Source: Squalus acanthias (taxonomy: Eukaryota). Taken from it: a DNA stretch of 64,000 bases. The stretch spans positions 100,132,001-100,196,000 of the forward strand of contig CM059431.1 in NCBI GenBank assembly GCA_030390025.1, read 5' to 3'. Positions 5,772 to 59,089 of this stretch are shown here, in pieces. Position numbers and translations under genes: made by a program. Positions within the stretch are counted from its first letter, which is position 1, and every line of letters begins with the position of its first letter. The notes beneath the pieces were generated by a model. The model saw nothing but the letters and a program-made list of their open reading frames with translations. It did not search any database and was not told where the DNA came from.

Positions 5772-6411
5772 GGCTCTGAAATTGCGGTCTCCATGCGGCG
5801 TACTCTCACCATTTGAAAGGCCTTCGCCTTGACAGATTATCCGAACCGCATGGAAAATGAATATTGCTGGCGCAGAGTGGGGCTATTTGCTCAACAACTG
5901 TCCAGCAACTGCCCACTCAACTCTTATGGCTGGTAAAAGCAGGCTTAAATAAAACATTTAGGAAAATCCAAAATTATATACACACACATTTAAATGAGTC
6001 TATGTAAATATTGACCCGGTTTAAGATGTTTGCAACTATTTATCAAAAAATTACATTTTTATTGAGGTTGGTGCAATGAAGGAACTTATGAATAAAATTG
6101 CAATTCAGTGCGTTTATATTTATTAGAATTCCGTACATTGTGTAATTATTTGGGGATTCCATGACATATCATTAGGGGATTCCATGCGTAAATGATTGCA
6201 ATGGAATCCTCCTTTGTGATTGGAGGACCGGGCCCAGGAGATCCCAGGAACACATCCGAGCCACCTGCGTCCCCGGGATCCTTGGGCTTTTCCACTGCCG
6301 TACACCTGGAGGCCTGAGACCGCAACTCTTCGCAGCCTGGAGGTAGGTTCATAAAGGTTTCGCGAGTCGGTCGTACTCCAGAGGTACGCCTCCGACCGCA
6401 ATTTCTAGGCC
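5772..6411. mobile_element. PIF/Harbinger-type MITE
   Basis: TIR GGCTCTGAAATTGCGGTC / GACCGCAATTTCTAGGCC; 3-bp TSD ATT on both sides; AT-rich core. Confidence 0.8.
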
Positions 6412-6510: not shown

Positions 6511-7280
<770 letters not shown>

Positions 7281-8374: not shown

Positions 8375-9157
<783 letters not shown>

Positions 9158-18274: not shown

Positions 18275-19305
18275 TGTAAGGTAATCGGCAAAAGAACCAG
18301 AGACGAGATAAGGAAAAGTTCTTCTACGCAGCGAGTTGTTGTGATCTGGAATGCGCTGCCTGAAAGGGCGGTGGAAGCAGATTCAATAGTAACTTTCAAA
18401 ATGGAATTGAAAAGGTGACATTTGCAGGGCTCTGGGGAAAGAGCGGGGGGGAGTGGGACTAATTGGAGAGCTCTTTCAAAGAGCCGGCACAGTCACGATG
18501 GGCCAAATGGCCTCCTCCTGTGCTGTACCATTCCGTGATTCCAAGTCTTTGGCGCAATGGATATCTTGTTCAATGTTCCAATGGCCTCTACTGCCCCCCT
18601 TCACCCTGCATCATCACCCAGGCTCAGGAATTTCCGGGCCAATGCGTTTAACAATGGCGTGTTAACGGCAGTGGTGGAAATGTGGCATATTATTGGGGGA
18701 GAATAGAGGGAGCGTATTTCTACAGCTGACCATGTTACAGCCCGGCCTGAAGTACATTGCGGATACAAAAATCAGAAAGTTCTGCTGTCCACAGCACGAA
18801 CATTCCTCACTTAACCTTTTATTGATTAATAAACTGAAACGGTAAATATCAATAACATAGAATTTACAGCACAGAAACAGGCCATTCAGCCCAGCTGGTC
18901 TATACCGGTGTTTCTGCTCCACACGAGCCTCCTCCCGCCCCTCTTCATCTCACCCCATCAACATATCCTTCTATTCCTTTCGCCCATCCCTAATATCCCT
19001 TGAGAAGGTGGTGGTGAGCCGCCGCCTTGAACCGCTGCAGTACGTGTGGTGAAGGTACTCCCACAGTGCTGTTAGGGAGGGAGTTCCAGGATTTTGACCC
19101 AGCGACGATGAAGGAACAGCCGATATATTTCCAAGTCAGGATGGTGTGCGACTTGGAGGGCAACTTGGGGGTGGTGGTGTTCCCAGGCGCCTGCATGTGT
19201 TTATCAAGCCTCCCCTTAAATGCATCTATACTATTCGCCTCAACCACTCCCTGTGGGAGCGAGTTCCACATTCTCCCCACTCTCTGGGTAAAGAAGTTTC
19301 TCTGG
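18275..19305. mobile_element. CR1 fragments (18275-18540 plus; 18855-19305 minus) with a nested Zenon-like 3' piece (about 18982-19192 minus)
   Basis: TQRVVVIWNALP motif; nested piece matches 1004-1200. Confidence 0.8.
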
Positions 19306-31479: not shown

Positions 31480-31825
31480 AATTTTACAGCACAGCGACTG
31501 GCCATTCGGCCCAACTGGTCCCTGCCGGTGTTTATGCTCCACTCTCCCACCATTGGCCGCCCGACATGTCCATCCTCGCCGTGCCCCGCCTTCCCGCGGC
31601 CAATCGGAAAGTGAACAGACTGTTCATTGCCCGATTGGATGGTCCTTCACCACCAGTCAAACAGCCTTTTTTCCGCCAATCTCCAATATTTTTATAACTA
31701 ACGAACAAAAGTGTTCAAAGAAAATGGGGGGGAAAAAACACACCTCCTCCCACCCCTCTTCATCTCACCCTATCAGCATAACCTGCTATTCCCTTCTCCC
31801 TCATGTACCTATCTAGCTTCCCCTT
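31480..31825. mobile_element. Minus CR1 tail interrupted by an internal fragment (about 31540-31740) of the GGGTTGCCA-TIR element
   Basis: 31540-31740 is near-identical to 34060-34258. Confidence 0.7.
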
Positions 31826-33968: not shown

Positions 33969-34375
33969 TAGTGATGCCAACTCTGGTTGGACGTATTCCT
34001 GGAGGGGGGGGGTCAACACATGACCTCCGACCCCCAACCACCCTGCCCCGCCCCCACACTCCCGCCATTGGCCGCCCGACACGTCCATCCTCGCGGTGCC
34101 CCGCCTTCCCGCGGCCAATCGGAGAGTGAACAGACTCTTCATTGCCCGATTGGATGGTTCTTCACCACCAGTCAAACAGACATTTTTTCCGCCAATCTCC
34201 AATATTTTTATAACTAACGAACAAAAGTGTTCAAAGAAAATGGGGGGGGAAAAAACACGCTTTTGTTTTAATGCCCCTATGATTTTGCTGACAGCTGTAA
34301 ATTAATCTTCAATTCCTGGAGACTCCAGGCCAATCCTGGAGACTCCAGGCCAATCCTGGAGGGCTGGCAACCCTA
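33969..34375. mobile_element. Non-autonomous DNA element with (TA)GGGTTGCCA-type TIR
   Basis: TAGTGATGCCAAC...CTGGCAACCCTA; 20-bp tandem duplication near 34315-34354; related copies at 35527-36510 and 46562-47208. Confidence 0.7.
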
Positions 34376-34467: not shown

Positions 34468-35283
34468 GGGGGAAAAATTCGGTTGGTTAACGCCTCCCGT
34501 TAGCGCCTCCGGGGGGCGCTAACAACTTAGCGCCCGAGCGCGGCAATTTTAGCGCCGCTCGTGAAATTGACCAGTCGTTTTGTGGCGGCGCTAAACACTG
34601 CTGCCACGATCTCCTGCGCCCACAGATCGTGACATCAGTCGAGCGTGCAGCGCCCCGGACTGAATATTGAGTGGCGCCCTCTGCCTTAGCGCCTGCCACT
34701 AGGAACGACCGGTAGAGGAGAACGTTTTCAAGTCGGGGAGGGGCTGGGGGAGCGCTATTTAAAGGCAGGCGCTTCCTGCCTTGTTGGCAACATTTTTTGT
34801 TACACGCAGGTTAAGAGAGAGAGAGACGTCTGGAGAGATTTAACGCTGTCCTAAGGAGTTTTGGCCCTCAGCACCACTTTTGAGGTTCCTAAGCGGCGAG
34901 CTCTTTCCCAGGGCCTATCCATTAGTGCTTCCAACACAATTGATTTCGAGGTCTCTCCAGGCCGAGATTCAAGGCTGCAATGAGCAGGGAGTGGCTGGCC
35001 AGCAAGATGGCCCCTCCCCTTTAAGAACTGGACGGCGCCAGTCTGTCTGGCTTCCATGGTAACGGACATCGCCTGAGCTTCGGTAGTGTTCTGAGGTAGC
35101 GCCTCGCTCCCCGACGTTACCGCTTTCAGAGAGGAGTGTAGCGCCTGATTTAGCGCTGAAATCACCTCCAGGGGGCGATAGAGGCGAATTTTGCAGTCGG
35201 AGGCAATAATTAGCGCCGGGCGCTAAACTTTGCACCCAGCCGATATTAGAGCCCCAAAATGGGTGATACCCAATTTTACCCCC
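34468..35283. mobile_element. CpG-rich PIF/Harbinger-type MITE
   Basis: TIR GGGGGAAAAATTCGGT / ACCCAATTTTACCCCC; TSD TAA on both sides. Confidence 0.85.
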
Positions 35284-35526: not shown

Positions 35527-36510
35527 TACTGTCGCCAACTCTGGTTGGCCGAATTCCTGCCGGCTTCATCACATGATCTCCCACCTCACCCGCTCAAACG
35601 GCCTTCCCCCCCGCCCCCGCCCCCAGCCCCCATCTCCAATATTTCAATAAACAAAAGTGTACAAAGAAAATGGGAAATAAACACTTTTTTTAATACTCCT
35701 TATGACTTTTTTCTCCCTTGGTTTTTCTCGCAGCCGTGTCCTCGAGATTGGCCCGGATTTTCCGGGGCCTGTGACCGGGTACGTGGCCGAAAGGACCTCC
35801 CAAGTTCCGGGTTCAGGTGACGCTGCGCATGCACGGAACCTGCGATCTGTCAGGAATCTTCTTGACGGATCCTCCACATCCCCGTAAATGGGCATTCGCT
35901 GGCGGAGAGTCGGGCTATTCCGACTCTTGCCCGAGGAATACCCGTGAAACTCTTATGCCTGGTAAAAGCAGGCGTGGGGCCACCTTTTACCAGCGTGAGG
36001 GTGAAAATAAATATGAAAATAAACATTTTAAAAATCATTTTAACATTCCAAAATCTGTAAAATAAGTTTCTGTTATTTTTGGCCCCTTGAAAAATGTTTA
36101 CATTTATTTTTCAAAAAATTAACTTTTTGTTTTAAATGTTTAATTAAATTGTATTTTAATTAATTTTAAACATGTGGTGATATTTTTTTATTTCAGTGTT
36201 GAGATGTATTTTTTGGGTGATTCCTATTCATGCTTATGGTGATTCCGTACGTAAATGGAATCACCCTTTGTGATTGGTTGGGCCGGCCCAGGTGATCCCA
36301 GGGCGCTTGCGAACCGCCTGCGCCCCTGGGATACCTGGGCCTCTACGCAGGCCTACGCCCACAGGCCCAGGAGCGCGTGTCTCCGTGGATCCAGGTCCAT
36401 CGGGTAGGTGCGGAGTTTTATTGCAGTTCGGGGGCATCCGCCTGCAAATTCAGGCCCGTTGACCTTTAATTCCTGGAGACTACAGGACAGTCCGGGAGGG
36501 TTGGCAATTC
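35527..36510. mobile_element. GGGTTGCCA-TIR element interrupted by a Harbinger-type MITE (about 35748-36457)
   Basis: Outer ends GTCGCCAACTCTGGTTGG...GGAGGGTTGGCAA; inner imperfect TIR GGCCCGGATTTT / AAATTCAGGCCC; inner element shares motifs with 5772-6411. Confidence 0.7.
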
Positions 36511-36614: not shown

Positions 36615-37376
36615 GGCCCAGAAATTCGCGTGTCTGGCTTGCCGCGGGGGTAAGGATCGCGCGCGCTCTTACCCACCGCGCCTGCCGTTGTGTTTTGGGC
36701 CCACAGGAACTTCGGGTCCCGGGCCTCTCCCAAGTGCCGGCGCGCAGTGCTTGCGTGTTCCAGGGGCGCAGTTAGTGCGATGCGACCCCTGGGATCACGT
36801 GGGCCATGGAGAGCCAATGGCAGCAGACCATCTTTCATTCATAGATTTGACAGGAGACCTGTCAAATCTGTGAATTGAAATCGGCCCCAAAAGAACAGCT
36901 AAACTTAAAATAAATTTTTTTTTAAAAACCATCACATTTATAAAATAACTATAGTTAAATAAATTAACCACTTTAAACAAAAATTTTAATTTTTGAAAAA
37001 ATTAAAATACTTTTTAAAAGTTATAAAAATAAACTTACCTTTCTTTAAAGTATCTAAAGATAAACCTGTTGAAAAAATTTTTAATTATACTTAATTAACC
37101 ACTTACCTTGTTCAAAAGGGGTCTTGCGCCTCCTTTTTATTAGCGTAGAATCTTCAATACTTACCCTCGCGTAGAAACCTGAAAAAAAATCTAAGTGTGC
37201 TGCGTGCGCGCAGCCTCTAGCACGCACGCGGTTCACCTAGGAACTGCCCACTTCACCATACCGGAAGTTCCGGTTTCCCACGCATGCGCAGTGCATGCAG
37301 GAAACCGGCACTTCGGGAAGCAATACGGGTGAGTACGGACTGTGTACTCACCCGGGAAGGGCCGAATTTTTGGGCC
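36615..37376. mobile_element. Harbinger-type MITE, family H copy 1
   Basis: TIR GGCCCAGAAATTCG / CGAATTTTTGGGCC; flanks ATT/AGT; colinear with 44708-45452 and 48582-49331. Confidence 0.85.
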
Positions 37377-37619
37377 AGTGTGATATTGTGAGACTACAGC
37401 AATTCTGATGGTGTCTCCCTCTATTACCCCGACCCGCTCAACATCCTGAATAACTTGCATGTTGCTGAGAGTTAACCACTTATGAACCAAATTCACAAAA
37501 ATGACATAATTGAAATTATCCCTCAAATCTCTTCTGTGCCGGATTGGTAGGAATAACATTTAAGTGTGTTGTAAAATGAAAGAAAGTAAGTCATGGGCTA
37601 TTTGTATGTATGAACTTCC

Positions 37620-38160
37620 TTAGAAAAATTCAGTTGCAAAGCCCCTAGCGCCCGGGCGCGGCGCCGCTAACGCCTCCCGCGAAATTCAGCGGGAGGTTAG
37701 CGGCGGCGGTAGCCAGTAGCGCCCCGTGGTGCTGCGCCTCCGGCGATGACGTCATCGGCGTGTGTAGCGCCGCGCTCGCACCCCGGCCGCAAACTTGGCT
37801 CCCGCCCCCGACGCCATGTCCGACAGGGTCAGGGGGGGCGTTTTTGCGGCCGGGGCGGCGATATTTAAAGGGCAGGGGCCGGGCAACCTTTTTTTTTGGG
37901 CCGCCTGCCAGCACCTGCCCCCTCTGGCCTCCTCCGGCGGGGTGCCGGCCGCGACCCTCTTGAGTGCCGGGCTCTTTAGCCAGCACCCCACTCCCTGGTG
38001 GTCCAGCAGGGCCCCTGTGCGCGCTGCGCTAGGCCCTTCCTCTTTAATCAGGGGAGGGAGACCTGTAATACTGCGGTGCTACGTGCTGACACACGTGGTG
38101 CCGCGATATTCAATGGGAGGGGGAGCGCTTCCAGTAGCTTGGGGCACGGGGGCAGTAAAG
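37620..38160. mobile_element. Truncated CpG-rich TIR-element fragment related to 34468-35283
   Basis: Shared TAACGCCTCCCG, TGAC.TCA and ATTTAAAGG motifs; internal hairpin about 37661-37705; no paired TIR seen. Confidence 0.55.
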
Positions 38161-38165
38161 TTATG

Positions 38166-39325
38166 AGTGTCAGCCTAGCTTTATGTGCTCAAGTCTCTGG
38201 AGTGGGGCTTGAACCCACAACCTTCTGACTCAGAGGCGAGAGCGCTGCCCACTGAGCCACTGCCTGACACAAATATTAAGTAAGATTTCCAGGAAATATC
38301 CAGTAAGCTATCTAGGGGCAACAGCTTATCATCGAATTACATAGAATCTGCACACAGCAACAGGCCATTCTGGGCATTCGGCCCATCAGTGCCGCACTGT
38401 CGGAGGGGCAGTACTGAGGGAGCGCCGCACTGTCAGTGGGGCAGTACTGAGGGAGTGCCGCACTGTCGGAGGGGCAGTACTGAGGGAGCGCCGCACTGTC
38501 GGAGGGGCAGTACTGAGGGAGTGCCGCACTGTCGGAGGGGCGGTACTGAGGGAGCGCCGCACTGTCGGAGAGGCAGTACTGAGGGAGCGCCGCACTATCG
38601 GAGGGGCAGTACTGAGGGAGCGCCGCACTGTCGGAGCGGCAGTACTGAGGGAGCGCCGCACTGTCGGAGCGGCAGTACTGAGGGAGCGCTGCACTGTCGG
38701 AGGGGCAGTACTGAGGGAGCGCCGCACTGTCGGAGGGGCAGTACTGAGGGAGCGCCGCACTGTCGGAGGGGCAGTACTGAGGGAGCGCCGCACTGTCGGA
38801 GGGTCAATACTGAGGGAGCGCCGCACTGTCGGAGGGGCAGTATTGAGGGAGCGCCGCACTGTTGGAGGGGCAGTACTGAGGGAGCGCCGCACTGTCGGAG
38901 GGGCAGTACTGAGGGAGCGCCGCACTATCAGAGGGGCAGTACTGAGGGAGCGCTGCACTGTCGGAGGGGCAGTACTGAGGGAGCGCTGCACTGTCGGAGG
39001 TGCCGTCTTTTGGATGAGACGTTAAACCGAGGCCCTGTCTGCTCTCTCAGGTGGATGTAAAAGATCCCATGGCACTATTTTGAAGAAGAGCAGGGGAGTT
39101 CTCCCCGGTGTCCTGGGGCCAATATTTATCCTTCAATCAACATAACAAAAACAGGATTATCTGGTCATTATCACATTGCTGTTTGTGGGACCTTGCTGTG
39201 CGCAAATTGGCTGCCGTGTTTCCTACATTACAACAGTGACTACACTTCAAAAAGTATTTCATTGGTTGTAAAGCGCTTTGAGACGTTCGGTGGTCGTGAA
39301 AGGCGCTATATAAATGCAAATCTTT
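38166..39325. mobile_element. Isolated minus DeuSINE head (38166-38270) and headless plus DeuSINE with about 18 units (38388-39000) and body
   Basis: Direct similarity to the other copies. Confidence 0.85.
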
Positions 39326-39329
39326 TAAC

Positions 39330-39730
39330 TGCTCCGTGCCGGTGTTTCTGCTCCACACGAGCCTCCTCCCACCCCTCTTCATCTCACCCTATCAACAGAT
39401 CCTTCTATTCCTTTCTCCCTCATGGGTAGACATAGAGAAGATGTTTCCACTTGTGGGGGAGACCAAAACTAGGGGCCATCAATATAAGACAGTCACCAAT
39501 AAATCCAATGGGGAATTCAGGAGAAGCTTCTTCACCCAGAGAGTGGTGAGAATGTGGAACTCGCTCCCACAGGGAGTGGGTGAGGCCAATAGCAGAGATG
39601 CCTTCAAGCCAAACCCTTTCCTAATTTTAAAGCCCTCTATCGGGCCATCCCTCCCGCCTTCTCTTTTCTAGAGCAAAGAGCCCCAGCCTGTCCAGTCTTT
39701 CCTGATGGTTGTAACCTCTCCGTTCTGGCA
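39330..39730 (-). mobile_element. CR1 3' fragment with an internal inversion (about 39425-39608)
   Basis: Orientation minus/plus/minus relative to 7600-7990. Confidence 0.75.
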
Positions 39731-40339
39731 GCTCAGTTTTCCAAAAAAAAAATTTCGTTTTTTGCTGTTGCAACTTTTAGTCTGAAAATATTGTTTTTCA
39801 ATTTGTTTTGGCCTTCACTGTAATTTTTTTTTTAATTAAAATAATCCATTGACATGTTGCATTATTTTCACATTGTAATGGGATGACTCATGGTTTGATC
39901 TTAATTGACTTTGTCGTATAGTTCTGAATCAGAAAAGAATACTCTCGGGCAACGGAAACCTTGATATATTAGTGGCTCCCACAGAGCCAAGGGACCAGTG
40001 GCAATAACCGCCTACATTTAAGATTACTTATTACCCAGGGTCGAGCAACAGATAAACATGCATGTAAACTGACATTTGATGCCAGATTTAATTGCCATTA
40101 ATGTACTTGATTCTTACTTTTATCAAGAGTCGACACAGATGACATACATTCATCAACTAAGGATAGTTGCATGCAATTTGAAGTAGAAATGTTATTGAAA
40201 TATGCTTCTGTTGCCAGTGTAATGTAGTTAAGGGACAGATTTTCACTGGACAGGAAAATATATTTTCTTGAATTGTTGCAGAGACGCATGAACACTTATT
40301 GGTGTCTCTCAGTCATCCTTTGTTTGATGTTCAATGCAA

Positions 40340-41125
40340 CTTGCATTTATCCCTGATAAGTGCGAGGTGATTCATTTTGGTCGGGCAAATTTGAATAAGG
40401 ATTACAGGGTCAACGGCAGGGTTCTGAGGAACGTGGAGGAGCAGAGGGATCTGGGGGTTCATATCCACAGATCTCTGAAGGTTGCCACTCAAGTGGATAG
40501 AGCAGTAAAGAAGGCCTATGGTGTGTTGGCGTTTATTAACAGAGGGTTTGAGTTTAAGAACCGTGAGGTTATGCTGCAACTGTACAGGACCTTGGTGAGA
40601 CCACATTTGGAATATTGTGTGCAGTTCTGGTCACCTCACTATAGGAAGGACGTAGAAGCATTGGAAAGAGTGCAAAGGAGATTTACCAGGATGCTGCCTG
40701 GTTTGGGGGGGAGGTCTTATGAGGAAAGATTGAGGGAGTTGGGGCTTTTCTCTTTAGAGCGGAGGAGGATGAGAGGCGACTTAATAGAGGTTTATAAGAT
40801 GATGAGGGGGATAGATAGAGTGGATGTTCAGAGACTATTTCCTCGGGTAGAGGCAGCTGTTACAAGGGGGCATAACTATAAGGTGCATGGGGGGAGATAT
40901 AGAAGGGATGTCCGAGGTAGATTCTTTACTCAGAGAGTGGTTGGGGTGTGGAATGGATTGCCTGCTGTGATAGTGGAGTCGGACACTTTAGGAACATTCA
41001 TGCGGTTATTGGATAAGCACATGGAGCACACCAGAGTGATAGGGAGTGTGATAGCTTGATCTTGGTCTCAGACAATGCTCGGCACAACATCGAGGGCCGA
41101 AGGGCCTGTACTGTGCTGTACTGTT
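40340..41125 (+). mobile_element. CR1/HER1 LINE 3' fragment with an open 241-aa frame
   Basis: KCEVIHFG...VRPHLEYCVQFWSP...FFTQRVV; tail. Confidence 0.9.
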
Positions 41126-41126
41126 C

Positions 41127-41563
41127 TATAGCGCCTTTAACGTAGTAAAACATCCCAAGGCGTGGTTTATCGAACAGAATTTGACACCGAACCACATGAG
41201 ATATTAGGGCAGGTGACCAAAAGCTTGGTCGAAGAGGTAGGTTTTAAGGAGCGTCTTAAGGGAGGAGAGAGAGGTGGAGAGGTTTAGGGAGGGAATTCCA
41301 GAGCTCGGGGCCCAGGCAGCTGAAGGCACGGCCGCCAATGGTGGAGCGATGGAAATCGGGGGATGCGCAAGGGGCCAGAATTGGAGGAGCGCAGAGATCT
41401 CGGAGAGTTGTGGGGCTGGAGGAGGTTACAGAGATAGGGAGGGGGGGCGAGGCCGTGGAGGGATTTGAAAACAAGGATGAGAATTTTAAAATCGAGGCGT
41501 TGCCGGACCGGGAGCCAACATAGGTCAGCGAGCACAGGGGGGATGATGGGTGAACGGGACTTG
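41127..41563 (-). mobile_element. L2 3' fragment
   Basis: WLPVRQRLDFKILILVFKSLHGLAP. Confidence 0.85.
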
Positions 41564-41723
41564 TAGTTTACCGGTCAGATAAGAGAAAGTTTGCTTTGTT
41601 TGAGGATGCTGGTGGAGGTGATAGTTTGACGGAAGAAGGAAGTGATATGGTTCAAAAAGTCTTAAAGGGGGACGAGTACCCATCGTGATTTTTCCACCTT
41701 TGATGGGCTGACCTTACCTGTGA

Positions 41724-41968
41724 TCACAGAATCACAGAATCCCCACAGTGCAGATAGAGGCCATTTCGGCCCATCGAGCCTGCACCGACACATATCCCAC
41801 CCACCCTATCCCCGTAACCCCACGTATTTAATCCCCCCTAACACTAAGGGTCAATTTATCATAGCCAAATCAACCTAACCCGCACATCTTTGGACTGTGG
41901 GAGGAAACCGGAGCACCCGGAGGAAACCCACGCAGACACGGGGAGAATGTGCAAACTCCACACAGACA
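41724..41968 (-). mobile_element. HE1-type V-SINE, 5'-truncated
   Basis: Minus strand has V domain GTCTGTGTGGAGTTTGCACATTCTCCCCGTGTCTGCGTGGGTTTCCTCCGGGTGCTCCGGTTTCCTCCCAC and a HER1-like tail (ATTCTGTG)n. Confidence 0.88.
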
Positions 41969-42699
41969 AAAAGGCAACTTTAACCGCATGATGATGAGCG
42001 CCAGACCTAAAAGTGAACTATTCGCCTATTCAAGAAGCATTGTGATTTATATTTTCAGGCCAGATTTGAACATAATGGGTGCTTTGCTATTTTAATGAAG
42101 TACTGTCTAAATAGTCACATCATTTACCGATCAGGGCACATTTATTTGATCGATGAAGTGCGCTGGCAGCAGATGCGTGGGGTTAATGCTCACTTCTGGC
42201 GAGCGAAGGCATTTGGAGTCCAGCTGGAGCCAAAATTAATTAAAACCCGATTTCACCGCTCTTCCAGCGGAAGAAACAATTGTTTTGTAGTAGTTAGTGC
42301 CCAAAGATCAGCATCTGTAAATCCGAATCACTTCACAACGTGCTATTAACAACTGATTAAATCTGTTAGGTTCTTTTTTGCAAACCCAGTCGCATTGAAC
42401 ATCTCGTAGCTTTTAACTGCTGGATTCTGGAATGTAAAATGATGAACAAAATTTACAGTTTTCAGGGTTTTGCTGTCCTTTATTTCAAAACACTTTTTTT
42501 TGTTTCTTTTTTAAAAAGCACTATCGTGGATTGTCTCCAAATATTCCACAATTTTGGAAACTCGAATAATGTAATTGCTTTTAATTAATAATGTTCGAAT
42601 GCTTTTTTTTAAAAAACAATGAGGTTTATATTTGTGTAGTTTGAAGAATTATATATAATGTGCTGATTTTTCTTTTTTGTAAGAAGGGGAAATTTTGAT

Positions 42700-43205
42700 T
42701 CATAGAATCATAGAATGATACAGCACAGAAGGAGGCCATTCGGCCCATCGTGCCCGTGCCGGCTCTTTGAACGAGCTCTCCAATTAGTCCCACTCCCCTC
42801 TGCTCTTTCCCCAGAGCCCTGCAAATATTTTCCTTTTCAAGTATTTATCCAATTCCCTTTTGAAAGTTACTATTGAATCTGCTTCCACCGCCCTTTCAGG
42901 CAGCGCATTCCAGATCACAACAACTCGCTGTGTAAAAAAAAAAAACATTCTCCTCATCTTCCCTCTGGTTCTTTTGCCAATGACCTTCAATCTGTGCCCT
43001 CTGGTTACCGACCCTCCTGCCACTGGAAACAGTTTCTCCTTATTTACTCTATCGAAACCCTTTATGATTTTGCACGCCTCTATTCAATCTCCCCTTAACC
43101 TTCTCTGCTCTAAGGAGAACAATCCCAGCTTCTCCAGTCTCCCCACGTAACTGAAGTCCCTCATCCCTGGGGACCATTCTAGTAAATCTCCTCTGCACCC
43201 TCTCT
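42700..43205 (-). mobile_element. CR1/HER1 3' fragment
   Basis: TRGHRLKVIGKR..FFTQRVVVIWNALP; tail. Confidence 0.9.
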
Positions 43206-43721
43206 GAGGAAATTTAGAAAGAGGTTTATTTTTAATGTATGTGCGCGCTTCATGCTCACCGTATCGCTGCCTGTGATTACAGGGACATATCTACGAACTG
43301 CACACATGAAATGTTATTTGGCGAACGCCAACCTTTCACATTTCAGTTCACAGATAATCTGTTCGGCTGCGCAGCCCCAGTGGAGTGCTTTGTACTGCTT
43401 CCAATCAATATGTGTGCTTTGATTTGCCTCCAGGCTTATTTCAAGATACATATTTAACAAGTATTTGACCTCGCACCAACAAAACAGATCTGTTTTTAAC
43501 ACCAAAAATATGTGACAGATTTCTCTCTGAATTCCAACACAAAGTGCGATGTTTGTCATTTTATTTATAAAGTGTGCATGTGTCACTTCTTGAACGCTCG
43601 CATTTTCTCTCCTACTCCTTTTACAAATTAGATGGTGCCTGTACTCTGGGACTTGGCCCTTCACCTAAGTTTCTTAATTAAAAAAGTTGCCTTTAGTTTT
43701 TAATCTGTGATTTTTGTCACA

Positions 43722-44610
43722 AAGAAACTTCTTTACCCAGAGAGTGGTGAGAATGTGGAACTCGCTACCACAGGGAGTGGTTGAGGCGAATAGCAGAGAT
43801 ACATTTAAGGGGAAGCTGGATAAACACATGAGGGGGAAAGGAATAGAAGGATATGGTGATAAGATGACATGAAGAGGGGCGGGAGGAGGCTCGTGTGGAG
43901 CAGAAACACCGGCACGGACCAGTTGGACCGAATGGCCTGTTTCAGGTACAGCAAACAATTAGGAAACCAAATGATATGTTAGCCTTTATTACAAGGGGAT
44001 TGCAGTGTAAGAGTAAAGAAGTCTTACTGCAGTTATATAGGGCTTTGGTGAGACCACACCTGGAGTACTGTGTACAGTTTACTTGCCTTAGAGGGAGTTT
44101 AGGTTTACTAGACTGATTGCTGGGATGAGGGGATTGTCCTATGAGGAGAGATTGAGTAGACTAGGCCTATATACTCTAGAGTTTAGAAGAATGAGAGGTG
44201 ATCTCTTTGAAACATATAAAATTCTTACAGGGCTTGACAGGGTAGATGCTGAGAGGATGTTTCCCCCTGGCTGGAGAGTCTAGAACCAGGGATCACAGTC
44301 TCAGAATAAGGGGTCGGCCATTTAAGACTGAGATGAGGAGGAATTTCTTCACTCAGAGGGTTGTGAATCTTTGGAATTCTCTACCCCAGAGGGCTGTGGA
44401 GGCTCAGTCGTTGAGTATATTCAAGACAGAGATCGATAGATTTTTGAATATTAAGGGAATCAAGGGATATGGGGATAGTGCAGGAAGCGAAGTTGAGGTC
44501 GAAGATCAACCATGATTTTATTGAATGGCGGAGCAGGCTCGAGGGGCCGATTGACCGACTCCTGCTCATATTTCTTATGTTCTTGTGTTCTGTGCTGTAA
44601 GTTCTTTGTA
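43722..44610 (+). mobile_element. Nested CR1 3' fragments
   Basis: [30 protein letters not shown]. Confidence 0.85.
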
Positions 44611-44707
44611 AGATTTCCTATCGTGCTAGTTGAGCTCCTGTTGCACGCGTGGAGTCCCGATCAAGTGTGATCTTCAGGTGAAGCTGGGTTAAAGGGCAAG
44701 AGATATT

Positions 44708-45452
44708 GGGCCAGAAATTCGGCTCCCTGGCTTCCCGCGGGTGCAAGGATCACGCGCGCACCTACCTACCGCGCCTGCCGTTGACCCCTGGGCCTCCTCC
44801 AACTGCCGGCGCGCAGTGCTCGTGTATCCCAGGGCCGTAGTTAGTGCGATGCGTCCCCTGGGATCACGTGGGCCATGGAGAGCCAATGGCAGCAGAGCAT
44901 CTTTCATTCATAGATTTGACAGGAAGAGCTGTCAAATCTATGAATACAGATCGGCCCCAAAACATCCCTAAAACTACAAATGCATTTTTTTTTTAAATCA
45001 CATTTTTAAAATAACTATAAATTACATTAATTAACTATTTTAAACAAAAATGTAAATTTTTGAAAAAATTAATTACACTTTTTAACAGGGCTAAAACTAA
45101 ACTTACCTTTCTTTAAAGTAATTAAAAAAGATAAATCTGTGGGGAAAAAAAGTTTAAATTTTATAAAATCAACACTTACCTTGTTAAAAGAAGGCCTTGC
45201 GCCTCCTTTTTCAATGTGTATCTTCTCCGTGCTTACCCTCACGGAGGAACCTGTAAAAAAAAAACCTGAAGTGTGAGGCGAACGTGCTGGCCCTCCGGCG
45301 TGCGCGTTCGACCTCTGAACCCCTTCCTTCAGGGGAATGGAAGTGCCGGTTTCCCGCGCATGCGCAGTGCATGCAAGAAACCGGCACTTTCGTTGGGCCT
45401 ACGGGTGAGTACACAACGCGTACTCACCCGTAGAGACCCGAAGTTCTGGCCC
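44708..45452. mobile_element. Harbinger-type MITE, family H copy 2
   Basis: TIR GGGCCAGAAATTCG / CGAAGTTCTGGCCC; flanks ATT/AAT. Confidence 0.85.
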
Positions 45453-45721
45453 AATAGCACAAGGAGCACCGATGTAATTCAGTTGCTTTTTTTAAAGTCA
45501 TATCTTCTGTCTTTTTTTGTATAATACTTTGATATTATGTTATTTATATTTTAATAGCAAAACTTGGAATAATTTGGGTAGCGGAGGAGTTGAGTTGATT
45601 GAAGTTTCCCTGCAGTACAGGTTATAAAGCTGAGGGGTTACAGCAGCAACACGGGCCGGAATGTGTCATTACAGTGTTTCCATCGGTAGCTCCCTTTATA
45701 AATGTGGATGTCAGAATTTTC

Positions 45722-46385
45722 AATAAAGAAAGAACTTGCATTTCTATAGCGCCTTTCACGACCTCAGGACGTCCCAAAGCGCTTTACAGCCAATGAAGTA
45801 CTTTTGATGTGTAGTCACTGTTGTAATGTAGGAATCACTGCAGCCACATTGCGCACAGCAAGCTCCCACAAACAGCAATGTGAGAAATGACCAGATCATC
45901 TGTTTTACTGATGTTGGGTGAGGAATAAATATTGGCCAGGACACTGGGGAGAACTCCCCTGCTCTTCTTCGAAATAGTGTCATGGGATCTTTTACGTCCA
46001 CCTGAGAGAGCCGACTCAGTTTAATGTCTCATCCAAAAGACTACCCCTCCGACAGTGCGGCGCTCCCTCAGTACCGCCCCTCCAACAGTGTGGCGCTCCC
46101 TCAGTACTGCCCCTCTGACAGTGTGGCGCTCCCTCAGTACTGCCCCTCCGACAGTGCGGCGCTCCCTCAGTACTGCCCCTCCGACAGTGCGGCGCTCCCT
46201 CAGTACTGCCCCTCCGACAGTGCGGCGCTCCCTCAGTACTGCCCCTCCGACAGTGCGGCGCTCCTTCAGAACTACACTGGGAGTGTCAGCCTAGATTTTT
46301 GTGCTGAAATCTCTGGAGCGGGACTAGAACCCACGAACTTCTGACTCAGAGACGAGAGTGCTGCCCACTGAGCCACTGACCGACA
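45722..46385 (-). mobile_element. Full-length DeuSINE with about 7 33-bp units (46045-46270)
   Basis: Minus-strand head, array, Deu domain, tail. Confidence 0.88.
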
Positions 46386-46561
46386 CTAATGTGTGACAAA
46401 AACGTGACAACAGGAAATAAGCTTTTGTACAGACGTAAGTTTTTAATATATTATAGATTTATCACCAGAACCAGTTAAGTCAAAAGCTTTTAATGTTCAC
46501 TTGAAGAGATGAATTTTCTAAGTTTGAGCTGGGGACAAGGCCTCAGACCATCAGCACGGAC

Positions 46562-47208
46562 TAGATCGCCAGCTCTCCAGCATTGCCCTGGAGTCTCCAG
46601 GGACGAAAGACTAATCTCCAGGACACTGCTGCCAACAAAACCCGGGAGAAAAATCATAGGGGCAATAAAAACATGTGTTTGATTTTTAATTTTATAAGAG
46701 TTAGGAGCAGGAGTCGGCCATCCGGCCCCTCACGCCAGCTCCGCCATTCAGTAAGATCATGGCTGATCTTCAACCTCAAGAATCTATCGATCTCTGTTTT
46801 GAATATACCCAATGACTGAGCCTCCACAGCCCTCTGCGGTTGAGAATTCCAAAGATTCACCATTCTAGAGTGAAGAAATTTCTCCAGCTCAGTCCTAAAT
46901 GGCCGACCCCTTATCCTGAGACTGTGACCCCTGGTTCCAGATTTTCATTGAACACTTTTGTTGATTTAGTTATAAAAATATTGGAGATGGTGGGGGAAAA
47001 AAAAGGCCGTTTGACTGACCGGGTCAAGAATCATCCAACTGGGTAACAAAGATTCGCTTTCCAATTGGCTGTGGGAAGGCGGGGCATTGTCGGGATGGAC
47101 GTGTCAGGCGACCAATGGCGGGAGTGTGGGGGGGGCAGGGCAGTAGGGAGGCGGGAGGTCATGTGACGGCACCTCCAGGCACACGGCTCACCAGAGTTGG
47201 CAACACCA
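46562..47208 (-). mobile_element. GGGTTGCCA-TIR element in reverse orientation, interrupted by a CR1 piece (about 46697-46945)
   Basis: CCTGGAGTCTCCAGG near the left end; CCAGAGTTGGCAAC at the right end. Confidence 0.7.
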
Positions 47209-47896
47209 GGACGGACGCTCAAAATTTAGGCTTAATTGTGAACTTCAATACGCGCTCCGCGGCACCTCTGGATCAAGGAGGTTTGTGTGTGAGGTTTTGC
47301 TGTGTTACAGAGTTGGGTATCTTTCTCAAAACTGGATATTCCAATTCATTTTAGGGCACAATTTCTCGGGGGGTTTTTTTGCTAATTCGTGTTAAGATCC
47401 TAAATGTGTGGGGTTTTTTTCCCGTGCATGCATTTCTGATCTCAAAAAAGGGAAACCGAGGAAATCTGCCCCTTTGTTTCCAGCCGATGTCACCCAGGAA
47501 TTGCCTGCACTTGCAGATTTTATTTTCTAAACCTGTTGTGGGAATTCAGGTTAAATACAAGGCAGAATTAATTCATTGTCATTGAAATTGTCTCCATGCG
47601 TTGATCAAACAAAACGAGGCGGGATTGTTTGCTTTTTTTTACCATAGTAAACAGACCTTTGTGGTCCCGCTTCAGCGATCTGTGAGGCTGACACGGATAA
47701 GTGGATCTGTCAGTTAGGATATACACTGTCCAACCTGAATCTAGCTCCCTATCAGCCAGAAAGCTTATGTGAAATTATATAGGTGGCTAAAAGTAAATAG
47801 TTTACTGAACCTTGTATACAATTGTATTGCAGTATATTAAAAGTTTATATAGTAAAAACTATTGAGGCGTGTAACTGCCTTAACTACAAGAGTAAT

Positions 47897-48080
47897 TTAA
47901 TAAAAGCAGAAAATGCTGGCAACACTCTGCAGGTCAGGCAGCATCTGTGGAGGGAGAAACAGAGTTAACGTTTCAGGTCGATGACCCTTCGTCAGAACTG
48001 GAAGATGTTAAGAGGTTTAACAGTTTTTTTTTTTATCAAGTACAGAGCTGGTGGAGGGAAGAACCAAAGGGGAAGGTCTA
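47897..48080 (-). mobile_element. Penelope-like element pseudo-LTR remnant
   Basis: Minus strand CTGACGAAGGGTCATCGACCTGAAACGTTAACTCTGTTTCT...AGATGCTGCCTGACCTGC; related copy at 54578-54715. Confidence 0.7.
47960..48000 (-). ncRNA. Minimal type I hammerhead ribozyme motif
   Basis: CUGACGA core (47995-47989), stem II GGUC-AUC-GACC, GAAAC (47974-47970), palindromic AACGUU in place of stem III, short stem I. Activity not shown. Confidence 0.6.
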
Positions 48081-48578
48081 TGGAGGCGGTGCAACGAAGG
48101 TTCACTAGATTGATTCCTGGGATGGGAGGGCTGTCCTATAATGAGAGATTGTGTAGAATGGGCCGATACTCTCTGGAGTTTAGAAGAATGAGAGGTGATC
48201 TCATTGAAACATACAAGATTCTGAGGGGGATTGACAGGGTAGATGCTGAGAGGCTGTTTCCTCCTGGCTGGAGAGCCTAGAACCAGGGGTCACAGTCTCA
48301 GAATAAGGGGTCGGCCATTTAACACCGAGATGAGGAGGAATTTCTTCACTCAGAGGGTTGTGAATCTTTAGAATTCTCTGCCCCAGAGGGCTGTGAATGC
48401 TAAATCTTTGAATGTATTCAAGGCAGGGATAGATAGATTTTTGGGCTCATGGGGAATCAAGGGATATGGAGATCAGGCGGGAAAGTGGAGTTGAGGTCAA
48501 TGATCAGCCATGATCTTATTGAATGGCGGAGAAGGCTCGAGGGGCCGTATGGCCGACTCCTGCTCCTAATTCTTCTGT
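48080..48578 (+). mobile_element. CR1 3' fragment
   Basis: EAVQRRFTRLIPGM..SLEFRRMRGDLIETYKI. Confidence 0.9.
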
Positions 48579-48581
48579 TAT

Positions 48582-49331
48582 GGCCCAGAAATTTGACTCG
48601 GAGGCTTGCCGCGGGGGTAAGGATCCCCCGCGATATCACACTCCGCGCCGGCCGTTGTGTTTCGGGCCCACACGAACTTCTGGTCCTGGGCCTCTCCCTG
48701 GTGCCGGTGCGCAGTGTGTGCGTGTCCCAGAGGCGCAGTTAGTTCGATGCGACCTCTGGGAGCACGTGGGCCATGGCAGCAGACCATCTTTCATTCATAG
48801 CTTTGACAGGAGAACTGTCAAAACTATGAATACAAATTGCCCCCAAAAGAACAGCTAAACCTCAAATAATTTTTTTTTAAAAACCATCACATTAATAAAA
48901 TAACTGTAGTTAAATAAATTAACCACTTTAAACAAAATTAAAATTTTTGCAAAAATTTAAATTCTTTTTAAAAGTTATAAAAAATAAACTTACCTTTCTT
49001 TAAAGTCTCTAAAAAAGATAAACCTGTTGAAAAAAATTTAAAATAATACTTAATTAACTACTTAGCTTGTTAAAAGGGGGTCTTACGCCTCCTTCATGTG
49101 TAAAATCTTCCATACTTACCCTCGCGTTGAAACCTGAAAAAAAACCTAAGTGTGCTGCGTGCGCACAGCCTCTAGCGCGCACGCGGTTCACCTAGGAACC
49201 GCCCCCTTCGCCATACCGGAAGTGCCGGTTTCCCGCGCATGCGCAGTGCATGCAGGAAACCGGCACTTCGGGACTGAATACGCGAGAGTACACAGTTTGT
49301 ACTCTCCCGTATTCAGCCGAATTTTTGGGCC
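48582..49331. mobile_element. Harbinger-type MITE, family H copy 3
   Basis: TIR GGCCCAGAAATTTG / CGAATTTTTGGGCC. Confidence 0.85.
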
Positions 49332-53002: not shown

Positions 53003-55355
53003 TGGGCTAAAAATGGGAGAGCACTAAAAACCTGCCAGTGCCTCCGTGGGCCGCAGTTAACAGCCGCCGAAATTAATAACGCTGGCAGCACCGGTATATT
53101 GGTGCTGCTTGCTAATTAACATTAGCGCAGTGCTAAACATACTGTGCAAGGCCGGTTTTCGGGAGGTAGTCTCAGCAGGAGGCCCAGTGTAGTGTGGCCA
53201 TAGCGTCATTGCAGCAAGAACAGCCTGCTCTTAAAGCACGGCTGTCATTTCAGAAAGCAGTGCAGTCCTTTAAAGGGGAACTGCCTTCTAAAACGAAAAA
53301 ATAAAAATCATTTAAAAATAGGCAGTTTTTAGCCTTTAGAGCTCAACTGACTTCTGGAAATAAAAGTTAAAAAGAATTCCCAAATGGGAGTCTTCAGTTC
53401 TTAAAGCTGAATTGCCTTCCACACCTTAAAAAATGGGAAAAGTGCTTCAGCACTAACACAAATGGTTCAGCAAGCCAGGGAAGGGCCACCCAGGCTCTCG
53501 CACGCAGCACTCCAGCTTTGTGCAGGGGGTTAACACTGCAAGAGAGGTCCTCTACCCACAGGGGCCAGGCTCCGGAAAGAACGATGTGGGAACACATCAC
53601 TGAGGCCGTCACTGCCAACAGTGTCGCCCCCACGACCTGGCTCCAGTGCCCAAAGAAGCTTCATGACCTCAGACCAGTGGTCAAGGTCAGTGAATGCATC
53701 TTCAAAAGCTGTCTCCTACCAACTGCACCACAAGCCTCGCACACTGCTCAATGCACAACTTCCCCCCACCCCCCCCCCCCCATTCACTCACCTACCAACA
53801 ATCTGTACCAAACATGAGGCACACCTCCCATTCCTAGCTTCACCTCACCCCCTTGGAGGAGATGGTGCTGGCCATTCTTGGCAGGGGCATGGCTGAGCCC
53901 TTGGCCAGCGGCGGGGCTGAAAGGATACAAGATGCTGGTATCCTCATATGTTATCCTCCTTCTCACATGCACCTCTTGTGTTCCTGCCCTCTCCTCACCA
54001 CAACTCCACCCTTGTGCCTTCCTCATTTCACACACCCAAGAAATGCAGCCTGCCCAGCCAGTGCTTGACCAAGAAGAGGGAGAGGAGAGTGAAGAAGAAG
54101 AAACACCGTTACTCAATTTCACACTCCCAGCCACCAGCTCCTCAAGGTTGATCAGCAAGGCGATTTGCAGTGAACCCCCACTGAAAGTCAGCAGCCTTCC
54201 ACCAGCCATGCTGCAGCCGCTGGGGTAGCACTGCGTGACATCGGTAGGATAAGCAAAGGCACACACAAGACAATTACGAAGGGAATGCATACGGGTGATG
54301 AGTTGATTTCTTGTTGTCATATTGGATGGATAGATGTATAAAGTTGGATTGGAAAGTTTGCTTTGTGGTAACTTTTATTTCAGCATTGTGGCCAAGAGGA
54401 CGCTGTGATGGTCAGTAACAGAGGGACGGTGTGGGACAAATGTTGAAAGTGGAATTGGGGTTGTGGTCACTGGTACTGCAGGCAGATGATTTCATCCCAG
54501 ATATCCCGGCCAGAAAGGGGCTGTCTGGGTTGCATCCTTCTACTTCCTCCTCTTCTGCGTCTTCCTCCTCTGCGAGTGGATGCTGGAAATCTAGAATAAA
54601 AGCATAAAATATTGAAAATACTCAGCAGGTGAGGCAGCTTCTCGACCTGAGACGTAAACTCTGTTTCTCTCTCCACGGATGCTGCCTGACCTGCTGAGTA
54701 TTTCCAGCATTTTCTATCTTCTCAAAGGCTTTCCTTAACTATCCAAGGCCTTGCAAGCATCCAGCAACACCCCTGCACATATTAAAGATCTTTTAACATG
54801 TATTGCACCAAGCCACTGTTTCAATAAACTATAAAAAATGCAATCCAAAAGCTTAAGTGCAAGCTTACCTGAAAGAAGTGTGTGTCCCTTTAAGAAGTGT
54901 GTGTCCCCTTAAGAAGTGCTGACAGCGTTTCTGTCGGTCTGCTGCACGCTCGCTTTTCAGAGCGAGCTTAGGATCCAGCGCTAAACTCGACACTAGGGTC
55001 GAAGTTGGCAAGGCCATTTGCAGTGTTCTTCACTGAAAGTCAGCAGCCTTCCACCAGCCATGCTGCAGCCACTGGGGTAGCACTGCGTGACATCAGTAGG
55101 AGAGTCAAAGGCACACACAAGGCAGTCACTAAGGGAATGCATAAGGGTGATGAGTTGATTTCTTGATGTCATATTGGATGGATAGATGCATATTTGCAAG
55201 TCCAGGCCAGCGCTGCTATCGGCAGTGCTGAGGCCCTCGCTAAAATGGCGGTCGCCGAGTCCCGCGCCAGAGGCGGGCGTTAGAGCGGCTGCCGCCATTT
55301 TTTTCCAGGATTGCGGGGCAAATGGGTGGCGGTAAGTAGCCCAATTTCCAGCCCC
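53003..55355. mobile_element. Degenerate PIF/Harbinger transposon with a Myb/SANT-like gene remnant (+) and a probable transposase C-terminus remnant (-)
   Basis: Imperfect TIR GGGCTAAAAATGGG / CCCAATTTCCAGCCC; 53485-53685 gives WEHITEAVTANSVAPTTWLQCPKKLHDL then aag|gtcagt; minus 54467-54570 ends RQPLSGRDIWDEIICLQYQ* after an acidic stretch. Confidence 0.72.
54578..54715. mobile_element. Penelope-like remnant in inverted-repeat configuration, nested in the Harbinger element
   Basis: AAATACTCAGCAGGT.AGGCAGC / GCTGCCTGACCTGCTGAGTATTT arms. Confidence 0.65.
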
Positions 55356-57745: not shown

Positions 57746-58129
57746 TCCTCTCTCGATTGGAATGAATATTTGATGATCTTGAGGGTTCAGTTTCAATCCT
57801 TTAGTACACAGCCAGCACACCACTGCGAGTTGGGCGGGACAAGGGGCACTTGGAAAAGAGTCCACAGAGCATCATAGGCGGTGGGTAAACAGCAAAAACT
57901 GGCGGGTAGGGATCATAAATTTTTTTTAAAGCGTGTCCTGCTACTTGCAAAACAGCTCGGGTACTTTGATTGTCAACTCACGGAACCTAGAAAGAAATTT
58001 AACCTCTGGGAAACTGGTAAACAAAATTTCCAGTACGTCAACGTACTACTGTCTAATCCATGAAATATTCCAGTATTGTGTTCTTTTATTAACCACGTTT
58101 CCTCAGTTCAAAAAGTTTATCATTAAAAA

Positions 58130-58620
58130 TTACGTCGAATTTGCAGCACAGAAACAGGCCATTCGGCCCAACTGGTCCGTGCCGGTGTTTCTGCCCCACA
58201 CGAGCCTCCTCCCACCCCTCTTCATCTCACCCTATCAGCATATCCTTCGATTCCTTTCCCCCTCATGAACATAGACGTAGAGAAGATGTTTCCACTTGTG
58301 GGGGAGACCAAAACTAGAGGCCATAAATATAAGATATTTATTAACTAATAAATCCAATCGGGAATTCAGGAGAAACCTCTTTACTCAGAGAGAGTGGTGA
58401 GAATGTGGAACTCACTCCCACAGGGAGTGGTTGAGGCAAAAAGCAAAGATACATTTAAGGAAAACCTTATTATCATTTTAAAGACCTCTATCCGGTCACA
58501 CCTCGGTCTTCTCTTACTTCATCTCACCCCATCAACATCTCCAATTCATTTCTCCTTCATGTACTTATCTAGCTTGTCCTAAATGAATCTATGCTATTCG
58601 CCTTAACCACTCCTTGTGAT
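58130..58620 (-). mobile_element. Rearranged CR1 3' fragment with an internal inversion (about 58270-58460)
   Basis: Same minus/plus/minus order as 39330-39730. Confidence 0.75.
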
Positions 58621-59089
58621 AGCATGGCTTTTGATTCATTTGAATCATTGGTTGTTACTTGAGAACACTTTGTTTTCTGTTCTTTAAAAGAAAAGGAAAC
58701 TTGTAGAGATCACTAATAGCAGACTGGCGTGCCAACAGGCTTAAGTAAAAAAAAAGATTTAAAAATGCTAATTAATCGCAACAGTGGTGTGATGTGGGAG
58801 TCCCAAGATGTTTGTCTATGTGAGAACTTGCTGTGAAAGCTATTGATATGGAAATGAAGGCTTTGGTTTAACCTACATTATCTGCATCGAGAGAGTGACA
58901 ATCATGCTTAGGTACCCATGCACTACCTAAAATTCTTCACCATTCGATGTCTGCAACAATTACCTTACACAGGCACTTGGAACATCGGTTGTGCCTTTTG
59001 GATTAAGTGCAGTGAAATGTACTGGACCAAGAAACATCATTGCAATCCATCCAAGCAACCATTCCCCAAAAGTTCAATTTAATTTATTG

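Follow-up and report, generated by a model that had tools for sequence, protein, structure and literature searches.

Background

Within a 64,000-nucleotide stretch of DNA from the shark Squalus acanthias (GenBank assembly GCA_030390025.1, contig CM059431.1, positions 100,132,001 to 100,196,000; hereafter the window), three copies of one repeat, which we call family H, carry the same series of hairpins, and in one copy a base pair has changed on both sides. What keeps these palindromes in place: a structured RNA, a small-RNA precursor, or sites in the DNA itself? All three had been put forward in a sequence-only reading of the window, the last in the form of dimeric binding sites for the Harbinger Myb protein. 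We report that the hairpins are short DNA palindromes in an abundant non-coding element, and that this element is a non-autonomous DNA transposon, or MITE (for miniature inverted-repeat transposable element), of about 750 bp and probably of the PHIS/Harbinger type. The explanation that we judge probable, if by no wide measure, is that the dyads are sites in the DNA under selection as long as a lineage transposes, with template switching restoring their symmetry.

Family H and its class

Comparison of the window with itself delimited three collinear copies of family H in the 64 kb, dispersed among unrelated flanks and given no strand:

36615-37376: copy 1, 762 bp, flanks ATT/AGT
44708-45452: copy 2, 745 bp, a different subfamily, flanks ATT/AAT
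48582-49331: copy 3, 750 bp, flanks TAT/ATT

Ungapped identity is 89% between copies 1 and 3, 80% between copies 1 and 2 and 77% between copies 2 and 3. All three end in imperfect 14-bp terminal inverted repeats (TIRs), altered at position 3 of both ends in copy 2, and copy 3 has inserted at the 3' tail of a long interspersed nuclear element (LINE) fragment that we take to be CR1-like. Only stop-to-stop frames of chance length (101-136 aa) overlap the copies; none is common to all three in the same frame (no Pfam scan was made of these frames). The observed/expected ratio of CpG is about 1.0 in H and 0.55 window-wide. Family H is very abundant: 17,540 contigs of one public run (X1) match copy 1, with a summed depth of 6e4 to 3.7e6 inside the element against 10-12 in the outer flank bins (a depth, not a copy number), and the public runs with matches span six organisms.

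Two relatives of the family lie in the same window:

35750-36457, minus strand: relative C, 708 bp, flanks ATT/GTT
5772-6411, minus strand: relative G, 640 bp, profile match E 4e-28

Relative C is about 62% identical to family H across 384-476 aligned bases and shares its layout, with palindromes placed as in H and arms that differ in sequence. Relative G, about 60% identical to both C and H, has a perfect target-site duplication (ATT/ATT). The right arm at the hairpin-1 position is directly duplicated in both relatives.

Helitron-type and Spy-type identities, as we understand those types, were dropped: TIRs are present and relative G has a 3-bp duplication. Five of the six H flanks fit ANT, which is the target-site duplication of the Pangu group of PHIS elements, whose TIRs of 11-40 bp begin AG or GG, and relative G with its ATT/ATT compares likewise; the TWA duplication of PIF/Harbinger proper is not found in the H flanks (Han et al. 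2015, PMC4482050, in the part available to us, the main text of which does not contain the word 'shark'). The Pangu group is defined on autonomous transposases, whereas H is known here from non-coding copies alone. Tourist-like MITEs and other non-autonomous PIF/Harbinger elements, such as mPing and Harbinger3N_DR, resemble H in being short and non-coding, in TIRs that start GG, in 3-bp flanks, in very high abundance and in conserved internal regions, according to the accessible sections of two papers (PMC2836001, PMC9921582). H differs in that its flanks are ANT-like rather than TWA and identical in no copy, and in its chain of at least six local palindromes, a feature that goes unmentioned for mPing-type elements in the sections we could consult; the word 'hairpin' occurs nowhere in the available portions of PMC9921582 and PMC9179366. 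Literature searches, which reached their sources in part, turned up nothing on hairpins inside MITEs of sharks. Family H probably adds a member to the PHIS/Harbinger-type MITEs, one that may already be catalogued in Repbase or Dfam.

Hairpins and other dyads

The palindromes of family H, which likewise carry no strand, are listed here for copies 1, 2 and 3 in that order, or for copies 1 and 3 where two intervals are given:

36758-36794; 44826-44864; 48725-48761: hairpin B, GC-rich, with counterparts in relatives C (36295-36332) and G
36837-36875; 44906-44945; 48793-48831: hairpin 1, 17-bp stem, loop of 5-6 nt
36970-37021; 48927-48972: AT-rich dyad, poorly retained in copy 2
37202-37229; 49157-49184: hairpin 4, rebuilt in copy 2 near 45278-45304 with other arms
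37264-37314; 45341-45389; 49219-49269: hairpin 2, stem of 15+6 bp enclosing a core that does not vary
37326-37354; 45399-45433; 49274-49316: hairpin 3, 11-bp core stem
37337-37343 (copy 1 only): hairpin-3 loop, in the opposite orientation to that of copies 2 and 3 and of most of the family

Hairpins 1, 2 and 3 had been described before, and a blind inverted-repeat scan of the window, in which 28 hairpins reached the score cut-off, recovered all nine of their intervals at exactly the positions first reported. To these we add at least three dyads (hairpin B, hairpin 4 and the one rich in AT), a loop that is inverted and more cases of paired change. Local hairpins number 5 in copy 1 and 7 in each of copies 2 and 3; their shuffled versions (30 shuffles each) average 0.4-0.7 and never exceed 3. 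Ten LINE or background segments served as controls, with no hairpin in six, 2 in two, 3 in one and 5 in one; because that last segment (58000-58750) is no MITE on reading, hairpin density alone is not diagnostic.

The T-A to A-T paired change ascribed to hairpin 3 of copy 3 is real (49285/49305). The stems themselves had been quoted in a somewhat idealised form: the hairpins exist, and 6 of their 147 cells are not Watson-Crick, comprising four mismatches (C.A at 48801/48823, T.C at 37269/37309, C.A at 45354/45376 and C.C at 49283/49307, of which the C.C lies two pairs from the compensatory change) and two wobbles (T.G at 36842/36870 and G.T at 45340/45390). Loops were also said to differ between copies, which is correct for hairpins 1 and 3; the core of hairpin 2 is a 19-nt block (37281-37299 in copy 1) invariant in all three. 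We take this core to resemble an NRF1 site, an ETS label presumably applies at hairpin 2 as well, and what we take to be an E-box adjoins hairpin B in every copy. Copy 3 has, besides, a G-C to A-T double change in hairpin B (48731/48755), and it has gained a stem of 8 bp at 48610-48632 as well as a lengthened hairpin 3.

Sequence, symmetry and paired change

Within family H the arms are kept as sequence, because between copies 1 and 2 the stems diverge less than the remaining columns: differences occupy 4 of the 98 columns in the three stems (4%) and 129 of 564 non-stem positions (23%; Fisher p 2e-6). With stems defined from copy 1 alone the corresponding counts are 11/136 and 135/596 (p 5e-5). 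Since 42 of the 49 pairs in the three stems never vary, this is sequence conservation more than covariation. One pair changes on both sides, which is not significant (161 of 500 shuffles reached as much, and the chance of at least one such change is about 0.08). When the TIR, hairpin B and hairpin 4 are included, the pairs rise to 84 and the double changes among them to 4, a number reached by 27 of 500 shuffles with stems chosen after the fact on three sequences; a simpler two-hit estimate gives p of about 0.009 for copy 1 against copy 3 and 0.001 for copy 2 against copy 3. As the stems were so chosen and one of the four double changes lies in the TIR, a DNA site, we regard symmetric change in the H stems as probably real, if weakly measured.

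That dyad symmetry is maintained, as the sequence-only reading held, is borne out by these double changes together with the palindromes that C and G have in corresponding places. Both relatives repeat hairpin B, the position of hairpin 1 and one further dyad with different arms, and a C-G to G-C swap distinguishes C (35906-35927) from G (5875-5918), in alignments between the families that are loose and were read by eye. Such turnover of the arms with kept symmetry fits selection on shape equally well.

Public contigs bear on the same point. Variants that complement each other between the arms of hairpin 1 occur at 36843 in run X11, at 36853 in run X12 and at 36852 in run X6; lying in separate contigs, they suggest paired changes (among the 40 of 119 variants and 24 of 510 loose ends listed, all unphased). 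Patterns built on hairpin 2 had no match in genome and viral contigs. Single matches to a 20-nt motif, one in metagenome and one in viral contigs, were set aside as chance, with no alignment beyond the neighbourhood of the motif.

An inverted loop and proposed template switching

The hairpin-3 loop of copy 1, when reverse complemented, matches copy 3 at 5 of 7 positions and copy 2 at 4 of 7; read directly, it matches at 3 of 7 and 2 of 7. Copy 1 is the exception in its family, for C at 37338 accounts for 82-93% of the depth in all four runs. Beyond 37336, the consensus of the loose ends, compared by eye, agrees with the reversed loop of copy 1 at 5 of 7 positions in X1 (35 contigs; chance 0.013) and at 6 of 7 in X11 (7 contigs; chance 0.0013). 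In this one case, then, a loop is inverted between intact arms: copy 1 carries the loop of the family in reverse complement, a known fingerprint of template switching during replication. Selection on pairing inverts no loop, and the inversion therefore points to template switching or arm exchange.

The described signatures of template switching include loops that are inverted, compensatory changes in number and stems that are extended (Monttinen and Loytynoja 2022, PMC8794818), and in yeast promoters inverted repeats are homogenised at the sites of dimeric factors (Rozenfeld et al. 2026, PMC13100816), as far as the accessible sections of both papers go. Family H resembles the quasi-palindromes of these sources in its inverted loop, its single-step paired changes and its stem extension. 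The known systems are rRNA genes and yeast promoters, the string 'transpos' is absent from the portion of PMC8794818 at hand, and in H we infer template switching from a single loop inversion together with a small number of paired changes. Template switching in excision-gap repair has been proposed as the origin of hairpin-like MITEs (PMC3814204, in extract). Since PMC3678771, in the part available, reports high mutation rates in break-induced replication and has nothing on quasi-palindromes in gap repair, a tie between template switching and gap repair can here only be proposed. Template switching can explain paired changes without selection on pairing, which the sequence-only reading had not considered.

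Dyads as candidate binding sites

Under the explanation that we favour, selected DNA sites restored by template switching, family H would be a non-autonomous cut-and-paste element of PHIS/Harbinger type, mobilised in trans, and its arm sequences would be constrained in those lineages that keep transposing. The arms would most likely be sites for dimeric or paired DNA-binding proteins, either the Myb/SANT protein of the element or host factors, the latter binding promoter remnants of the autonomous parent. Upon mutation of one arm, template switching in replication or in excision-gap repair would copy the other arm across, so that from time to time a paired change, an extended stem or an inverted loop would appear in a single step; resting genomic copies would decay without regard to pairing. 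The TIR, being a DNA site, likewise carries a double change. Binding sites for a Harbinger Myb protein are plausible by analogy with Harbinger3_DR, in which a subterminal motif of 9 bp is bound by the Myb-like protein (PMC9710019, in the part seen), and internal regions of mPing modulate transposition (PMC9921582, likewise in part); the dyads could equally well derive from promoter remnants to which host factors bind.

A number of points weigh against this explanation. When copy 1 is compared with copy 3, the stems are not significantly conserved (p 0.13-0.23). Of the five longest blocks without variation, two have no part in a stem, and copy 2 departs from the AT-rich dyad at 7 of 50 columns. 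In C and G, moreover, the arm sequences turn over as symmetry persists. A motif census found no single motif common to all H hairpins, and arms recur in part elsewhere in H; a binding partner for the dyads is something that we infer. The mPing study, in its accessible sections, favours nucleosome occupancy over sequence-specific sites (PMC9921582). The inverted loop is a single case, none of the three H copies has identical 3-bp flanks, and no autonomous parent was found in the 64-kb window. As a plus-strand RNA, hairpin B folds 5-12 kcal/mol better in all three copies (as DNA the plus strand is better by 0-2 kcal/mol only). Finally, the T.G wobble at 36842/36870 may be common: the Watson-Crick A at 36870 makes up 49% and 53% of the depth in X1 and X6 and 82-88% in X11 and X12, and the variants listed (40 of 119) include no change at 36842 to match 36870.

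Alternative explanations

The palindromes might be a neutral by-product, arising and persisting without function through template switching in repeated gap repair. We consider this unlikely. It would account for the inverted loop of copy 1, for the new stem and lengthened hairpin of copy 3 and for the mismatches left unrepaired, and it has the proposed gap-repair origin of hairpin-rich MITEs on its side (PMC3814204, in extract). Under homogenisation alone, however, stems would be expected to change symmetrically about as fast as the background, and copies 1 and 2 show no symmetric change in 49 pairs though 23% of their non-stem columns differ. The stems were picked as conserved, yet the contrast persists with stems taken from copy 1 alone.

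Quite unlikely, in our estimate, is selection on the shape of the DNA, with sequence second: DNA in a single-stranded or supercoiled state would form hairpins or cruciforms that aid mobilisation, through excision, synapsis, nucleosome exclusion or copying in gap repair. In its fullest form, to which we give as little credence, a clade of shark PHIS/Harbinger-type MITEs would conserve the positions and not the sequences of its hairpins at about 60% identity, the shape being needed for mobilisation or amplification by gap repair. The matching dyads with different arms across H, C and G, including the C-G to G-C swap, speak for it, as do the 4 double changes in 84 pairs and the strand symmetry of folding. 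Within H, however, the arms are conserved as sequence, and the comparison between families rests on loose alignments. We know of no hairpin or cruciform role in Harbinger transposition. None is mentioned in the available parts of PMC2836001, PMC9710019 and PMC9921582.

The remaining possibility is that the folds act in a transcript, as a structured RNA or small-RNA precursor, whether in the 5' untranslated region of a parent gene, by hiding splice-site-like motifs or as Drosha/Dicer substrates. Folding is strong, and it is so on both strands: the whole-element z of copy 1 is -9.1 on the plus strand and -9.0 on the minus strand, and hairpins 1-4 have no consistent strand preference. G-U pairs, which on an RNA might be tolerated strand-specifically, number 5 on the plus strand and 3 on the minus strand outside the TIR, with 4 other mismatches (p 0.73). 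No Rfam family reaches its gathering score in the window, the best hit in copy 1 having E 0.83 and 14 of 55 bits. Canonical microRNA (miRNA) hairpins have a stem of 30-35 bp (PMC12553114, in the section consulted), which the H stems of 11-21 bp do not attain. MITE-derived microRNA precursors, for example the MER-derived miRNAs, are similarly palindromic DNA-transposon sequences that can fold as RNA; the stems of H are separate and short, with TIR pairing of just 14 bp. Contigs of two runs guessed to be RNA contain no splice joints across H; contigs are blind to strand, level and small RNAs, so that this counts neither way. The copies do hold a cassette of motifs that we take to be splice donor-like and acceptor-like:

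37034-39, 37102-07 and 37160-65, minus strand: three 5'-splice-site-like motifs, with two acceptor-like motifs, within 37034-37182 of copy 1

The cassette recurs on the minus strand at matching places of copies 2 and 3, one of its motifs falls inside the longest invariant block (22 nt, 37030-37051), and what is presumably a 5'-splice-site-like motif occurs in the arms of hairpin 3 on both strands. Harbinger-type elements move as DNA, and transposition therefore does not select for the way in which a non-coding copy folds as RNA. Despite the folding strength, these motifs, the plus-strand bias of hairpin B and the possibly common T.G wobble, an RNA role, whether structured or as a small-RNA precursor, is thus very unlikely, given the lack of an Rfam family at threshold and of any consistent strand preference in hairpins 1-4, the shortness of the stems and covariation that falls short of significance.

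Neighbouring elements

The vertebrate DNA of the window is rich in repeats, among them fragments of LINEs and a 33-bp minisatellite. Other features are as follows:

6511-6825 and 8828-9157, plus strand: exons of a sodium leak channel (NALCN-like) gene, at about 6.5 and 9 kb
18583-18640: remnant of 58 bp, flanked by AAT on both sides, with a single end of Harbinger-like type
34468-35283: element B, an 816-bp MITE with a perfect TAA duplication
about 37628-38110: truncated relative of element B
31600-31638, 34315-34349 and 46578-46631: separate dispersed repeat family with internal palindromes of its own
53004-55354: internally deleted Harbinger-like element with ends similar to those of family H

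The exons carry the Pfam domain Ion_trans, and their top PDB match is 'Sodium leak channel non-selective protein' (E 1e-35). Element B contains 8 hairpins and, over both orientations, ten occurrences of one 7-mer, which are good candidates for sites bound by a Myb-type protein. Two further elements, D and F, have no more hairpins than their shuffles. The element at 53004-55354, which is other than H, retains on its plus strand a weak Myb/SANT remnant (E 0.042, under the Pfam cut-off), the sole Myb-like open reading frame among those of the window that were scanned; an acidic stretch on its minus strand presumably resembles a transposase C-terminus.

Conclusions

The hairpins of family H are best read as ordinary transposon biology. 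They carry a caution for the study of repeats, namely that a 'compensatory' change in a repeat family can stem from template switching and is no proof of RNA structure. The abundance of the family would make it a good natural data set for the rates of template switching in a vertebrate, and it should also be useful for mapping the cis-acting sites of a Harbinger-type element. If it were true that shape and not sequence is selected, this would mean a structure-dependent and unexpected step in DDE cut-and-paste transposition.

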